Source: Nannocystis pusilla
Lineage (GTDB): Bacteria; Myxococcota_A; Polyangia; Nannocystales; Nannocystaceae
DNA: 64,000 nucleotides
NCBI RefSeq assembly: GCF_049060185.1
Contig: NZ_JBMEQO010000002.1
Direction: 5' to 3' (one strand)
The notes beneath the pieces were generated by a model. It ran no database searches. It was not told the DNA's origin and saw only the letters and a list, made by a program, of their open reading frames with translations. Positions within the stretch are counted from its first letter, which is position 1. Each line of letters opens with the position of its first letter. A program made the translations under genes and the position numbers. Positions 32,114 through 38,437 of this stretch are shown one piece after another.

Positions 32114-33340
32114 TCAAGCCTGCGCGGGCAGGGAGTCGAGCAGCTCTTGCAGCGCGCGGGGCAGGGCGGTGAAGCGGACCGTCGCGCGGCCCGGGCCGGC
32201 GGCGACGACCTTGGCGTAGGCGTCGACGCCGGGCAGGGCGGCGAGCACGAGCTTGAGGTCGGCGCGCAGCGGCAGCGGGGCGGCGATCTGCAGCTCGGCG
32301 TTGTGGCGCTCGTCGTGGGCCACGAGCAGCGCCGGGAACTCCTGGCCGCCGGTGTCTTTGCCCTCGAGCGCGGTGAACACGAGCGGCTGCGGCTCGGCCA
32401 GGACCCGCCACGCGGCGGCCTCTTCGATCATGTGGATGGCGAACGGGCCGTCGACGCCGGTGACGTCGTGGATCGTGATCGGCTCGCGCACGCCCTTGGG
32501 CCGGACCTCGAAGCAGCCGCGGGTGCGGAGGCGGTCGCCGAGGGCCCGCGCGGCCGACTCGGAGATCAGCACCTGGCCGCCGACGGTGTAGCTCTCGATG
32601 CGCGACGTCAGGTTGACGTGGCGACCGACCACGCCGTACTTGGCGCGGCGGTTCGAGCCGATGTTGCCGACCACGACCTCGCCGGTGTGGACGCCGATGC
32701 CCATCTCGAGCGCGGGCAGGCCGTGCTCGGCCAGCGCGGCGTTGACGCGGCCCATCGCCCGCTGCATGGCGATCGCGCAGGCGACCGCGCGCTCGGGGTG
32801 GTCCTCCTGCGGCACCGGGGCGCCGAACACCGCGAGGATGGCGTCGCCGATGAACTCGTTGATCGAGCCGCGGTACTCGCCGATCACGTCGGCCATGGCG
32901 CCGAGGTAGATGTTGAGGATCGCCACCACCTGCTCGGGGCCCAGGCCCTCGCACAGCGTGGAGAAGCCGCGCAGGTCGGAGATCAGGATCGTCAGGGTGC
33001 GCCGCTCGCCGCCGAGCTGGCGGCCCTCCGGCGAGGCGAGCAGCGTGTTGACGACCTCGTCGGTGACGTGGCGGCCGAACACCTGGCGGATGAAGGTGTT
33101 GCGAAGCTCGAGCTCGACCACGAGGGCTTCGACTTGCTCGATCTTGACTGCCAGCTGCTCCTCGATCTCGTTGGCGTGTTCGAGGGTCGAGTCGTGCAGC
33201 AGCACCAGGTCGTCGTGCTCGGCCTGCAGCGTGGCGACGGCGGCCATGAACTCGGCGCGCGCGGCCGGGTCGGCCAGAAGCTCGGCCGCGGCGTCGGGGT
33301 CGGCGAGGGCTCGTCGCCAGCGCGGGTCATCCGTGAGCAT
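32114..33340 (-). CDS. class III adenylate/guanylate cyclase (CHD domain) with ~110-aa N-terminal coiled-coil region; last gene of the Sia-like operon
   Basis: The intact 408-aa ORF shows the CHD core RTLTILISDLRGFSTLCEGLGPEQVVAILNIYLGAMADVIGEYRGSINEFIGDAILAVFGAP...GIGVHTGEVVVGNIGSNRRAKYGVVGRHVNLTSRIES. Confidence 0.85.
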   Translation of the reverse strand: MLTDDPRWRRALADPDAAAELLADPAARAEFMAAVATLQAEHDDLVLLHDSTLEHANEIEEQLAVKIEQVEALVVELELRNTFIRQVFGRHVTDEVVNTLLASPEGRQLGGERRTLTILISDLRGFSTLCEGLGPEQVVAILNIYLGAMADVIGEYRGSINEFIGDAILAVFGAPVPQEDHPERAVACAIAMQRAMGRVNAALAEHGLPALEMGIGVHTGEVVVGNIGSNRRAKYGVVGRHVNLTSRIESYTVGGQVLISESAARALGDRLRTRGCFEVRPKGVREPITIHDVTGVDGPFAIHMIEEAAAWRVLAEPQPLVFTALEGKDTGGQEFPALLVAHDERHNAELQIAAPLPLRADLKLVLAALPGVDAYAKVVAAGPGRATVRFTALPRALQELLDSLPAQA

Positions 33341-33353
33341 GCGGGCGGCCGAC

Positions 33354-33728
33354 TCAGTCGAGGGCGATGACGATGGTCGGCAGGAACTTCTTGAGGTTGG
33401 GCAGCGACTTGCCCTGCCACGGGATGTTCGACGAGCCGTGGACCTTGATCTCGGTCTCGCCCTTCTTGCGCGCGGCGATGGCGAACTTGTAGAGCATGTT
33501 GATGCCCGAGCTGTTCAGGAACTGCAGCTCGGTCATGCGCAGGGCGAGCGCGGGGTTGGCCAGCAGGACGCGGTCGAGCAGGTCCTCGATCGGCTTGTAC
33601 TCGCTGGTGCTGAGGCGGAGCACGCCCTCGAAGTGGACCGTGCGCGCGGGCGCGTCGAACCACACGCGATAGCCGGGGCCTTTGATGTCGGTGTCCGACC
33701 CGGAGGGTCGCGTAGTTGTGTCCGTCAT
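33354..33728 (-). CDS. SiaC-like protein (DUF1987 family partner-switch component)
   Basis: The intact 124-aa ORF reads ...YRVWFDAPARTVHFEGVLRLSTSEYKPIEDLLDRVLLANPALALRMTELQFLNSSGINMLYKFAIAARKKGETEIKVHGSSNIPWQGKSLPNLKKF. Its size and pattern match the SiaC fold family; this assignment is from memory. Its start overlaps the stop of the upstream SiaB-like gene. Confidence 0.6.
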   Translation of the reverse strand: MTDTTTRPSGSDTDIKGPGYRVWFDAPARTVHFEGVLRLSTSEYKPIEDLLDRVLLANPALALRMTELQFLNSSGINMLYKFAIAARKKGETEIKVHGSSNIPWQGKSLPNLKKFLPTIVIALD

Positions 33729-36691: not shown

Positions 36692-37864
36692 TCAGCGCTC
36701 CGGTTTGCGGCCGGAGGCGACGTAGATCGGCCAGGTGGCGAAGCCGCGGCGGCTGCGGATCGCGTAGACGTGATCGCGGAAGCCCATGCGCAGGCGCTCG
36801 ACCACCTCCGGCGGCTGCTGCGTGGCGGCCGACAGCTCGCCGGTGACGTACTCCTCCCAGCTCTCGATCACCCGCGCGAAGTCGTCGATCGCGGTGTTGT
36901 TGTTGGTGATCGGGATCTGCTCCATGCGCACGTCCTCGAGGCCCATGTCGGTGAGCTGCGAGAACATCTTGGGCCCGAAGTTCATGTCCATGCCGAGGCT
37001 CTGGGCGATCTTCACGGCCTGCTGGTAGGTCCACGCGACCGACTCGTGGCGCGGGTAGCCGTAGTTGTGCGCCGTCATCTCGTTGGTCAGGTAGACCCGA
37101 CCGCCGGGCTTACAGATCCGCACCAGCTCGCGCAAGATGCTCGACGGATCGTTGAAGATCTGCAGCGCCAGGCGCGAGGTGACGAAGTCGAAGCTGTTCG
37201 ACGGCAAGAACAGGTGGGTCGCGTCGCCGAACTGATACTCGATGTCGGTGATGCCGAACTCGCGGGCCATCTGCTGCGCGTACTGAAGGAACGGCCGCGA
37301 GTGGTCGACGCCGACGATGTACGCGGGCTCGAACTCCTTGTAGACGAGCACCGCGAAGTCGCCGATCCCGCAGCAGATGTCGGCGATCCGCATGCGCTTG
37401 CCGAGGCCGTGGCGGCGCAGCAGCTCGCGCTCGTGCGACCACACGATGTTGGTCTGGGTGCGCAGGACCGGCACGAGCTGGTCGTTCTCGATGACGCCCT
37501 GGCCGGGGTAAAACGCCTTGTCGTACTGCTCGACGATGGTGTTGCCGAACTGCGCGCCGAGGAAGCCGAACCGCAGCGGCGCCCACGGGACGACGCTCGA
37601 GACGACGAGCTTGAGCTTGAGGCTCGGGTGGCGCTCGGCGCAGGCGGCGATGAAGCGCGCGAGCTCGAGGAAGCCGGTGTGGTTGAGGTAACGCAGGCGC
37701 TTGAAGTTGAGGTAGAGGACGCCGCGCACGGCGTCGGCGGCGTGGTCGAGGCGCGCCCGCACCGGCGCGAACGCCTCGGGGCCGGCGGGCCGCAGCGTCC
37801 CCTCGAGCGCGACCTCCTGGTCGTTCTCGCTGAAGCGGATCGAAAACGGTTGCTCGTTCTCCAT
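36692..37864 (-). CDS. fusion protein: N-terminal SiaC-like (DUF1987-like) domain plus class I SAM-dependent methyltransferase
   Basis: The intact 390-aa ORF has an N-terminus, FSIRFSENDQEVALEGTLRPAGPEAFAPVRARLDHAADAVRGVLYLNFKRLRYLNHTGFLELARFIAACAERHPSLKLKLVVSSVVPWAPLRF, that parallels the SiaC-like gene. The C-terminus has MTase motif I (RIADICCGIGDFAVLV) and a post-I acidic residue (YIVGVDHS). Confidence 0.65.
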   Translation of the reverse strand: MENEQPFSIRFSENDQEVALEGTLRPAGPEAFAPVRARLDHAADAVRGVLYLNFKRLRYLNHTGFLELARFIAACAERHPSLKLKLVVSSVVPWAPLRFGFLGAQFGNTIVEQYDKAFYPGQGVIENDQLVPVLRTQTNIVWSHERELLRRHGLGKRMRIADICCGIGDFAVLVYKEFEPAYIVGVDHSRPFLQYAQQMAREFGITDIEYQFGDATHLFLPSNSFDFVTSRLALQIFNDPSSILRELVRICKPGGRVYLTNEMTAHNYGYPRHESVAWTYQQAVKIAQSLGMDMNFGPKMFSQLTDMGLEDVRMEQIPITNNNTAIDDFARVIESWEEYVTGELSAATQQPPEVVERLRMGFRDHVYAIRSRRGFATWPIYVASGRKPER

Positions 37865-37876
37865 ACCCAGCTCGGC

Positions 37877-38437
37877 TCACTCGTGCGGGACAGTAAGGAC
37901 GATGACGCCGGCGCCGTCGCCCTCGCGCAGCGCGAGCTCGACCCCGTGGAGCGCGACCAATTCGAGCAGCCCGACCTCGGCCGGCGGACGCAGGATCATC
38001 GACTCGAACTCGGCCTCGTAGCGAGCGCGCGCGTCCGCGGGCGCGACCCGCCCGAGGTCGTCGCGCAGCCGCTGCGCGAGCGCCTCGTCGGTCGGTATCG
38101 TCAGCTCGGCGATCACGTGCTCGTCGGTGCGCCCGACCTCGACCACGATCTCGCCCTCGCTCGGCCGGGCGCGGAACACGTACTCGAGCACCTCGTTGAG
38201 ATAGGTCGAGAGGCGCGTGGTCAGCTGCTCGGGATCGAAGCGATCGGAGGCGACGAAGCGCGCGATGTAATCGGCCAGCCGCTGGCAGTGCGTCCAGCTG
38301 TCATAGAGCCCGCGGACGCTGATCCGGAGGGTGAGGATCGGGCTCGAGCCGGGAGGTGAGGGGGCGCGAGGTCGGAGGTCATGCCGGGGCGAGGGCGGGA
38401 GAGGGGCAGCAGGCGCACCTCGCCCGGATCCGGGCAC
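37877..38437 (-). CDS. hypothetical regulator, possibly a second SiaB-like GHKL-type kinase; first gene of the operon; 5' end uncertain
   Basis: ...ILTLRISVRGLYDSWTHCQRLADYIARFVASDRFDPEQLTTRLSTYLNEVLEYVFRARPSEGEIVVEVGRTDEHVIAELTIPTDEALAQRLRDDL... resembles the SiaB-like protein in pattern (L..Y......R.......L...L.E..E.......G.i.v). The N-terminal 40 aa are Pro/Arg-rich, and an out-of-frame ATG at ~38370 suggests another indel. Confidence 0.45.
   Translation of the reverse strand: MPGSGRGAPAAPLPPSPRHDLRPRAPSPPGSSPILTLRISVRGLYDSWTHCQRLADYIARFVASDRFDPEQLTTRLSTYLNEVLEYVFRARPSEGEIVVEVGRTDEHVIAELTIPTDEALAQRLRDDLGRVAPADARARYEAEFESMILRPPAEVGLLELVALHGVELALREGDGAGVIVLTVPHE

Follow-up and report, generated by a model that had tools for sequence, protein, structure and literature searches.

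A partner-switch gene cluster of Nannocystis pusilla that may gate a predicted guanylate cyclase

Besides sigma factors, the known targets of partner switches include, in a few cases, diguanylate cyclases. In the SiaABCD system of Pseudomonas aeruginosa, for example, the PP2C phosphatase SiaA, the kinase SiaB and the switch protein SiaC are combined with the diguanylate cyclase SiaD. A locus of Nannocystis pusilla (RefSeq assembly GCF_049060185.1, contig NZ_JBMEQO010000002.1) raises the question of whether such a switch can also be connected to a class III nucleotidyl cyclase. Specifically, in the stretch of 64,000 nucleotides (nt) analysed here, hereafter the window, the minus strand carries at 32114-38382 six co-directional genes, g1 to g6, which a first-pass annotation had interpreted as a SiaA/SiaB/SiaC-like module driving an adenylate/guanylate cyclase. 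In our estimate there is a probability of about 55% that this operon is a phosphorylation-controlled partner switch gating a soluble, Cya2-type guanylate cyclase. The four genes most directly concerned are the following:

34311-36670, minus strand: g3, a membrane sensor phosphatase of 786 amino acids (aa), with a transmembrane segment, an extracytoplasmic dCache-like domain, a second transmembrane segment, a HAMP domain, a coiled coil and a SpoIIE/PP2C domain.
33725-34287, minus strand: g4 (A2), a 187-aa GHKL-like protein of the slr1658 superfamily and putative switch kinase, with a frame broken near 34220.
33354-33728, minus strand: g5 (C2), a 124-aa switch protein of the slr1659 superfamily, with a SiaC-like/STAS-like predicted fold and the putative phospho-acceptor S73.
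32114-33340, minus strand: g6, a soluble cyclase of class III, 408 aa long, in which a stalk helix is followed by a cyclase transducer element, the Cya2-like catalytic domain and finally a PilZ-fold domain.

The succession of PP2C, kinase-like protein, switch and cyclase from g3 to g6 matches the siaABCD order, as originally proposed. The same holds for the description of g3 as a SiaA-like Cache-HAMP-PP2C membrane phosphatase. In particular, Pfam places a HAMP domain (E 4.5e-13) before a SpoIIE domain (E 2.4e-31) in a membrane protein, as expected of a SiaA-like phosphatase, while two hydrophobic segments bracket a region of ~400 residues with a weak match to dCache_1 (E 2e-6, below cutoff).

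What kind of proteins are g4 and g5? Frame-corrected proteins, for reasons discussed below, were used in the analysis. Corrected g4 reaches 142.7 bits against the slr1658 superfamily model NF047703, and g5 reaches 125.8 bits against the slr1659 model NF047705, both passing the cutoff of 100. Moreover, g4 shows a HATPase_c match (E 1e-3), and its N-box, LNEL.ENAVKF, and SGLG lid motif are conserved among 64 unique orthologues; a single-sequence search of the PDB with g4 yielded nothing beyond a histidine kinase matched at the N-box (E 1.2). With regard to g5, the match to STAS is sub-threshold (E 0.013, 15.7 bits vs a cutoff of 22.6), as is that to ant_ant_sig (E 0.02), and the protein falls outside the classical STAS/anti-sigma switches of the RsbV-RsbW and SpoIIAA-SpoIIAB type.

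The predicted structure of g5 is more informative. An AlphaFold (AF2) model built on 20 homologues, with a mean predicted local distance difference test (pLDDT) of 92, was compared with the PDB by Foldseek, and the top seven matches were all SiaC chains, in apo, SiaB-bound and SiaD-bound form. These matches, which include 6KKO, 7E6G, 6KKP and 6K4F, have E values from 5.7e-6 to 5.5e-5 and TM scores of 0.64-0.67; SpoIIAA, RsbV, RsbS and further STAS antagonists come lower in the ranking. In the model, N72-S73-S74 forms the start of the predicted helix alpha2 (73-89), and the heptapeptide LNSSGIN that contains it is 100% invariant in 62 unique orthologues. The corresponding residues of SiaC, N67/T68/S69, stand at the N-terminal end of its alpha2 and are wedged between the two SiaD stalk helices, and phosphorylation of T68 by SiaB breaks the SiaC-SiaD complex and blocks binding (PMC8457831). 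By analogy, S73 of g5 is a putative phospho-acceptor. In other words, the SiaC-like reading of this protein holds at the level of fold and motif, with SiaC as the top solved-structure match and an invariant N-S-S in the place of the N-T-S of SiaC.

As for the enzyme at the end of the operon, g6 is assigned to Guanylate_cyc by Pfam, and its model (pLDDT 81) consists of a 64-residue helix (25-88), the transducer element and a catalytic domain (113-296), in agreement with the class III cyclase with N-terminal coiled coil described at first. Among 30 orthologues the metal-binding aspartates, Asn243/Arg247 and the FGR(Y/H) transducer element are conserved, and position 162 is always E or D, never K. 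This is the constellation of a Cya2-type enzyme, that is, a class III cyclase homology domain (CHD) fold with two metal-binding Asp, the transition-state Asn/Arg pair, and a Glu/Gly rather than a Lys/Asp substrate pair. Since position 162 is never K, and since Cya2 becomes an adenylate instead of a guanylate cyclase through the one substitution E488K (PMC5995499), g6 is predicted to be a guanylate cyclase with a Cya2-like Glu/Gly pair and to produce cyclic GMP (cGMP). The nucleotidyl cyclase of the first-pass annotation is retained, and its output, left there as cAMP or cGMP, can be refined in this sense. Two further elements of g6 deserve separate mention:

33143-33229, minus strand: stalk motif, residues 38-66 of g6, L..(D/E)(D/E)L.LL(H/Y)(D/E)..LEH...IE.QL..., a candidate docking site for the switch.
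32132-32407, minus strand: PilZ-fold beta-barrel plus helix, residues ~312-403 of g6.

Within the stalk motif of g6, H55 and E60 are invariant, and the PilZ-fold domain is devoid of the canonical cyclic di-GMP (c-di-GMP) motifs RxxxR and (D/N)xSxxG. An identification of the stalk motif with the signaling helix (S-helix, PMC1592074) was rejected by inspection, because the motif has no E-R-T signature, lies at the extreme N-terminus and has no sensor upstream; the E-R-T signature is found instead in g3, after the HAMP domain (EQRTAEL).

Is the cyclase coupled to the switch, or does it simply lie beside it? The gene neighbourhoods of related loci bear directly on this question. In a survey of one genome per species, slr1659 relatives were found in 336 genomes, and the best 80 loci were analysed. 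The genes g1-g5 constitute a cassette with nearly fixed spacing, complete in 64 of the 80 loci and distributed over Myxococcota, Rhizobiaceae/Mesorhizobium, Anaerolineae, Chthoniobacter, Rhodanobacteraceae and other groups. The sixth, flanking gene varies and encodes a PP2C, a CHD cyclase or a GGDEF protein. These variable neighbours share an N-terminal helix motif of ~35 aa, (D/E)(D/E)L.LL(H/Y)(D/E)..LEH...IE.QL, whose His and Glu are invariant. A hidden Markov model (HMM) of this motif identifies exactly one open reading frame (ORF) per locus, always the gene adjoining the cassette, in 65 of 87 sources; nothing else is detected in ~1.6 Mb of six-frame translation, and in the window the only match is g6. 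According to Pfam, 28 representative flanking proteins divide into 17 SpoIIE and 11 Guanylate_cyc proteins. Over the 80 loci, the flanking gene encodes a PP2C in 40 cases, a CHD cyclase in 15 and an unclassified protein in 3, while the other 22 have no motif-bearing ORF within 10 kb.

The cyclase adjoins the slr1658/slr1659 pair in at least six gene arrangements, in several phyla and together with differing PP2C sensors. Specifically, it lies downstream of the pair in Nannocystis, upstream on the same strand in L055 and L061, divergent from it in L048, L062 and L066, and convergent with it in L078. In L093 the set is reduced to A2-C2-cyclase, the sensor is of the SBP-SpoIIE type and the methyltransferase pair is missing, and L092 has the order cyclase-SpoIIE-x-x-A-C. 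Observed directly, in the analysis as a whole, are the genes present and their domain families, the resemblance in fold, the conserved motifs, the synteny and the exchange of output domains.

Two metagenome-assembled genomes (MAGs) of Nannocystis (L001/L002, 522-5090) carry, beside the cassette, a second, divergent operon that is absent from the window. It encodes proteins of 366 aa (with a Pfam GRAS match) and 177 aa, a SpoIIE protein, proteins of 170 and 135 aa, and a Guanylate_cyc protein. The 170-aa and 135-aa products are weak slr1658 and slr1659 matches, respectively, and the operon looks like another switch-plus-cyclase module.

The distribution of the motif beyond these loci points in the same direction. 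An exhaustive search of the motif profile against 1.84 billion representatives yielded 79 proteins, 40 of which, the long ones, were scanned; a 52-aa stalk-motif profile run against an index of 5.8 billion proteins returned only 8 short fragments. In the 40 long proteins the motif stands N-terminal to 13 Guanylate_cyc (CHD), 12 GGDEF and 7 SpoIIE domains. The GGDEF proteins often have two or three tandem copies, which recalls the SiaD stalk with its pair of SiaC-binding motifs. Where the genomic context of GGDEF examples was looked up, an slr1658-like gene follows in four out of four, an slr1659-like gene also follows in three, and a SpoIIE gene then comes in two (L087, L096); one of the four is a natural GGDEF::slr1658 fusion (P0154). 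In the stalk proteins examined no sensor domain precedes the motif, so that their input would have to come in trans. Judged by gene context, one switch family is paired with three enzyme classes activated by stalk-mediated dimerisation.

This evidence is to be set against the possibility that the cyclase is a mere neighbour, in other words that the cassette has its own output, such as the methyltransferase encoded by g2 or an unlinked target, and that g6 is regulated independently, for instance through its PilZ fold. The 22 loci without a motif-bearing neighbour would be expected in this case, the extra C-terminal domain of g6 could indeed take an input, and in L091 a g6-type cyclase is accompanied by a kinase with a cNMP-binding domain with no switch genes adjacent. 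Independence of the two is nevertheless improbable in our judgement, given that cyclase and switch pair recur together in at least six distinct arrangements over several phyla, that the stalk motif is confined to the flanking gene of each locus, that GGDEF enzymes bearing this motif likewise have slr1658 and slr1659 genes behind them, and that g6 has no N-terminal sensor domain of its own. The proposed coupling of cyclase and switch is supported by comparative genomics, namely by synteny, the shared motif and the GGDEF::slr1658 fusion.

How might the system work? In the following scheme, which proteins bind each other, which way the regulation runs, which residue is phosphorylated, what the cyclase makes and what receives it are all inferred. 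The phosphatase g3 would sense an extracytoplasmic ligand through its Cache-like domain, and the HAMP domain would set the activity of the PP2C domain, which would dephosphorylate g5 at Ser73; g4 would in turn re-phosphorylate g5. Unphosphorylated C2 would grip the paired stalks of g6 where the conserved motif lies, in the way SiaC binds to the stalk of SiaD, and would thereby stabilise the parallel dimer needed for the active sites of a class III cyclase. The cGMP that g6 makes from GTP would then be read by the adjacent Ser/Thr kinase with a cNMP-binding domain.

A different wiring can be drawn with the same components. In the sigma-B pathway of Bacillus subtilis, the N-terminal domain of RsbU is bound by the kinase RsbT. 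By analogy, A2 (g4) rather than C2 might dock on the cyclase stalk, activating or inhibiting the enzyme, while unphosphorylated C2 would sequester A2, and phosphorylation of C2, or its dephosphorylation by g3, would set the amount of free A2. The commonest flanking partner, a protein of ~300-345 aa with an N-terminal helical region followed by PP2C, has indeed the size and layout of RsbU; moreover, the natural fusion P0154 joins a stalk-motif GGDEF protein to slr1658, not to slr1659, and in the GGDEF operons the slr1658-like gene is immediately beside the enzyme gene. We regard this wiring as the main rival, though a rather unlikely one, because the closest solved structure to C2, SiaC, binds its stalk directly through N-T-S, which is invariant here as N-S-S, because the enzyme gene follows C2 and not A2 in Nannocystis and Sorangium, and because none of the 28 flanking proteins has a Pfam RsbU_N match.

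Several points weigh against a phospho-switch that gates g6 through C2. First of all, the sequence is compatible with a contact of either C2 or A2 with the stalk. The neighbour of the cassette is in most taxa a PP2C and not a cyclase, and the loci whose neighbours within 10 kb are devoid of the motif, 22 of the 80, count here as well. The PilZ-fold domain of g6 could be a separate and dominant input. Furthermore, the slr1658 family has no obvious G1 box (DxGxG), and the kinase activity of g4 is for this reason not assured.

Family membership is a further point of this kind. The 124-aa protein had been labelled DUF1987, and the first-pass annotation had staked its proposal on this label; g5 has no Pfam DUF1987 match even at E<=10, so that, taken to the letter, the proposal fails on its own terms, although it holds on fold and motif, and sequence identity with SiaC is only ~16%. 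Likewise, corrected g4 obtains 24.9 bits (E 1.3e-5, model positions 80-167) against SiaB_fam_kinase NF038262, whose cutoff of 85 is not reached, which indicates a distant similarity to SiaB only. What remains of the proposed SiaB-like kinase is a GHKL-like protein with an intact N-box, belonging to the slr1658 superfamily. Filing the switch proteins under SiaB or DUF1987 was accordingly rejected. As the curated SiaB and DUF1987 models failed and the slr1658/slr1659 cutoffs were passed, g4 and g5 are, by sequence-family criteria, not SiaB and SiaC but members of the slr1658 and slr1659 superfamilies.

The integrity of the operon has also to be considered, since in the window as given the frames of g1, g3 and g4, three of the six, are disrupted by 1-nt deletions, which again speaks against a working system. 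In g1 the deletion is near 38365, just after the ATG at 38382; in g3 it is near 34408, in the C-terminal tail, so that the ORF as read ends at 34325; and in g4 it is near 34220, at the N-terminus, so that the ORF as read starts at a GTG at 34183. The reference for these indels was the locus of Nannocystis sp. RBIL2 (L007), 98.1% identical over the 6.6 kb compared. Five indels were found, all of them single-base deletions in the window (38582, 38524, 38365, 34408 and 34220), most within short homopolymer runs and two in non-coding DNA. Single-nucleotide homopolymer deletions are a typical signature of long-read assembly error. Once corrected, g4 can be aligned end to end in a single frame with the loci checked, the first gene of the metagenome locus L004 has 168 aa, and the g3 tail GEIKQAIVDDVMRFIGAQKVFDDITTVVIKRR restores the C-terminus of the PP2C domain.

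If the three frameshifts were real, the operon would be decaying and non-functional in this strain, and the interruption of three of six reading frames in the window as given is what one would see. This is, however, highly improbable, since every indel relative to the 98%-identical relative is a 1-nt deletion, mostly in a homopolymer and in two cases non-coding, since the sister long-read assembly L008 shows split matches in other genes (the g3 sensor and the Ser/Thr kinase), since the downstream reading frames stay open and conserved, and since the corrected g4 and the 168-aa first gene of L004 are as just described. The three frame-breaking deletions are, on these grounds, probably assembly errors and not pseudogenisation. 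The assembly seems to have systematic homopolymer errors, and other ORFs of the window may be falsely broken.

With respect to co-transcription, the intergenic spacings from g1 to g6 are 12, 21, 23, -4 (an ATGA overlap) and 13 nt, in agreement to within 1 nt with the gaps of 13-24 nt or overlaps first reported. The GTG at 38437 that had been taken as the start of g1 is not a likely start, and mapping against L007 points to the ATG at 38382. The locus is 98-99% identical to those of Nannocystis sp. RBIL2 and N. pusilla Na p29, and the gene order is kept within Nannocystis in the genomes of six species and in four other assemblies (MAGs); because of this conservation the arrangement is not a chance juxtaposition. 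A scan of the locus for sigma-70 promoters and intrinsic terminators, uninformative for a myxobacterium of 70% guanine plus cytosine (GC; the window has ~71%), gave no promoter-like sites; of terminator-like sites it gave three, all on the plus strand, opposite to the operon. For operon status, one more weak point of the proposal, the evidence is therefore the gene spacing together with the synteny. No record identical in sequence to g5 was found.

A comparison with characterised systems helps to place the locus. With SiaABCD it shares, besides the gene order, a membrane HAMP-PP2C phosphatase, a switch whose predicted fold best matches SiaC, an N-(S/T)-S at the start of alpha2, and a dimerisation-dependent nucleotide cyclase with a long, motif-bearing N-terminal stalk. 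It differs in that g4 and g5 belong to the slr1658/slr1659 superfamilies rather than to NF038262 SiaB and Pfam DUF1987, in that g6 is a class III (CHD), Cya2-like predicted guanylate cyclase with a PilZ-fold tail instead of a GGDEF enzyme, in the extracytoplasmic Cache-like sensor domain of the g3 phosphatase, and in a putative acceptor Ser in g5 where SiaC has Thr; in addition, the Nannocystis operon contains a further, degenerate pair to which a methyltransferase is fused. The genes after which the two superfamilies are named, and whose superfamily cutoffs g4 and g5 pass, are slr1658 and slr1659 of Synechocystis sp. PCC 6803. A phenotype in the recovery from iron starvation, along with up-regulation of pgr5, is mentioned for Slr1658 (Zer et al. 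2018, as cited in PMC7555055); in the literature found, only these genetics of Slr1658 are available, with no mechanism, partner or cyclase link for either protein.

The RsbR/S-RsbT-RsbU-RsbX branch of the B. subtilis sigma-B pathway also has, beside a GHKL switch kinase, a STAS protein and a PP2C that resets the system; its output enzyme is activated by a protein partner through a helical region at the N-terminus, and the cassette-flanking protein of most taxa is RsbU-sized, with an N-terminal helix and then PP2C. In contrast to that branch, the locus encodes neither a sigma factor nor an anti-sigma factor, RsbU_N has no match in the flanking proteins, and the output in the window is a cyclase; in particular, no sigma-factor family was matched among the gene products scanned in and beside the operon (29218-40755). 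Partner switches controlling diguanylate cyclases, namely HsbR/HsbA-HsbD of P. aeruginosa and BgrUVW-BgrR of Sinorhizobium meliloti, appear among the references of PMC7647112. They likewise place an anti-sigma-antagonist-type phospho-switch on a second-messenger cyclase and not on a sigma factor, but through canonical STAS and RsbW-type proteins and c-di-GMP, whereas here a class III cyclase and predicted cGMP are concerned. Finally, Cya2 of Synechocystis (PDB 2W01) is a membrane protein regulated in cis by CHASE2, whereas g6, a soluble enzyme encoded with a partner switch, bears a docking-type stalk at its N-terminus and a PilZ fold at its C-terminus.

The operon opens with a second pair of switch-like genes:

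37877-38382, minus strand: g1 (A1), a 168-aa degenerate slr1658-like GHKL-type protein, with a frame broken near 38365.
36692-37864, minus strand: g2 (C1::MT), a 390-aa protein with an slr1659-like domain (~1-115), a class I S-adenosylmethionine (SAM)-dependent methyltransferase (~128-270) and a C-terminal extension.

Both are divergent paralogues of the second pair. Specifically, g1 scores 35.3 bits (E 7e-9) against NF047703 and the N-terminus of g2 scores 42.9 bits (E 5e-11, residues 5-94) against NF047705, in both cases under the cutoff of 100; in Pfam scans at E<=10, g1 has no match and the g2 N-terminus has none to DUF1987. The GHKL-type character assigned to g1 by the first-pass annotation is weakly recovered as slr1658-like, and the name SiaB is not confirmed by Pfam or NCBIfam. 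For g2, similarly, the fusion with a class I SAM-dependent methyltransferase stands, in place of a SiaC-like DUF1987 domain there being a sub-cutoff slr1659-like one. The methyltransferase is recognised by Pfam Methyltransf_11/25/31 (E 1e-18 to 1e-19) and is UbiE/COQ5-like. In 68 unique orthologues the g1 family is without the N-box Asn and the GLG lid box, and g1 is probably a pseudokinase; in the orthologue alignment of g2 the phospho-site motif reads LN[NHSF][VITAS][AG]F, with no conserved Ser. Because of these losses, g1 and the g2 N-terminus are probably a degenerate, catalytically dead and non-phosphorylating copy of the switch pair, conserved across phyla in 64 of the 80 loci, and the pair would serve to tether the methyltransferase.

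On the other side of the operon, the cyclase gene faces a convergent neighbour:

30330-31853, plus strand: a Ser/Thr protein kinase with a C-terminal cyclic-nucleotide-binding domain (Pfam Pkinase E 3e-37, cNMP_binding E 3e-17).

Irrespective of how the switch genes are arranged, a gene of this composition adjoins the g6-type cyclase in every Nannocystis locus and also in L004, L091 and L093; L091 is the case with no adjacent switch genes. The kinase is a candidate receptor of the cyclase product. Its ORF in the window ends in an Arg-rich tail, and another frame ends in ...DESLDGSDMHATLLARRD* at 31933; probably, a further indel lies at ~31800-31933 and the true stop is at 31933. In five loci of Rhizobiaceae/Mesorhizobium (L058, L065, L072, L074 and L081) a convergent ORF ~370-650 nt downstream of the slr1659 gene has a weak identity of 24-26% to the Ser/Thr kinase domain, with no cNMP-binding domain detected by tblastn.

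In the gap between the convergent kinase and cyclase genes (31955-32025) the palindrome GGACATGTCC is repeated three to four times, and a perfect hairpin, GGCATGTCC-n4-GGACATGCC, is part of this array. With up to one mismatch, the palindromic 10-mer is found at 23 places in the window where 1.7 would be expected, often as pairs with a distance of 14-42 nt; 22 further sites lie beyond 31955-32025, for example at 17852/17892, 22835/22877 and 23971/23985. It may be a dispersed element of the repetitive extragenic palindromic (REP) type or the operator of a regulator.

Upstream of the operon, 264 nt from the g1 start, a divergent gene (38647-40755, plus strand) encodes an FHA-domain protein of 702 aa that also has a Gly-rich region and ends in a TonB-C-like tail. 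As FHA domains bind phospho-Thr, a link to the nearby kinase and phosphatase genes is conceivable.

What would these findings mean? No report of a partner switch controlling an adenylate/guanylate (class III) cyclase, nor of a link between SiaC/DUF1987 and such a cyclase, was found in the literature, and the first-pass annotation was likewise aware of no characterised example; similarly, no prior description was found of the stalk motif, of DUF6272 or of a function of the slr1658/slr1659 superfamilies beyond the Slr1658 phenotype. The partner-switch logic proposed at first is largely supported by the comparative evidence, with its family labels corrected and its output refined. A broader interpretation, which we offer tentatively, is that slr1658/slr1659 is a widespread sister of SiaB/SiaC, a plug-in phospho-switch for stalk-dimerised enzymes, and that LLHE..LEH...IE.QL is its universal docking site on GGDEF proteins, class III cyclases and PP2C phosphatases. 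Nannocystis would then possess in one locus an entire cGMP pathway, composed of Cache sensor, PP2C, phospho-switch, Cya2-type cyclase and cGMP-binding Ser/Thr kinase, together with a second, dead switch controlling a methyltransferase.

To our knowledge, very few bacterial cGMP pathways have been characterised. If the proposal is true, partner-switch logic would extend to cAMP/cGMP signalling, and bacterial cGMP would acquire a regulatory input. Moreover, the occurrence of one switch family beside GGDEF, CHD or PP2C enzymes that share an N-terminal helix motif predicts a portable docking module and provides a working hypothesis for two NCBIfam 'regulator' superfamilies present in at least 336 species genomes. 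It may also explain the slr1658 phenotype of Synechocystis, and the combination of motif and switch could be a design principle for engineered cyclase control.

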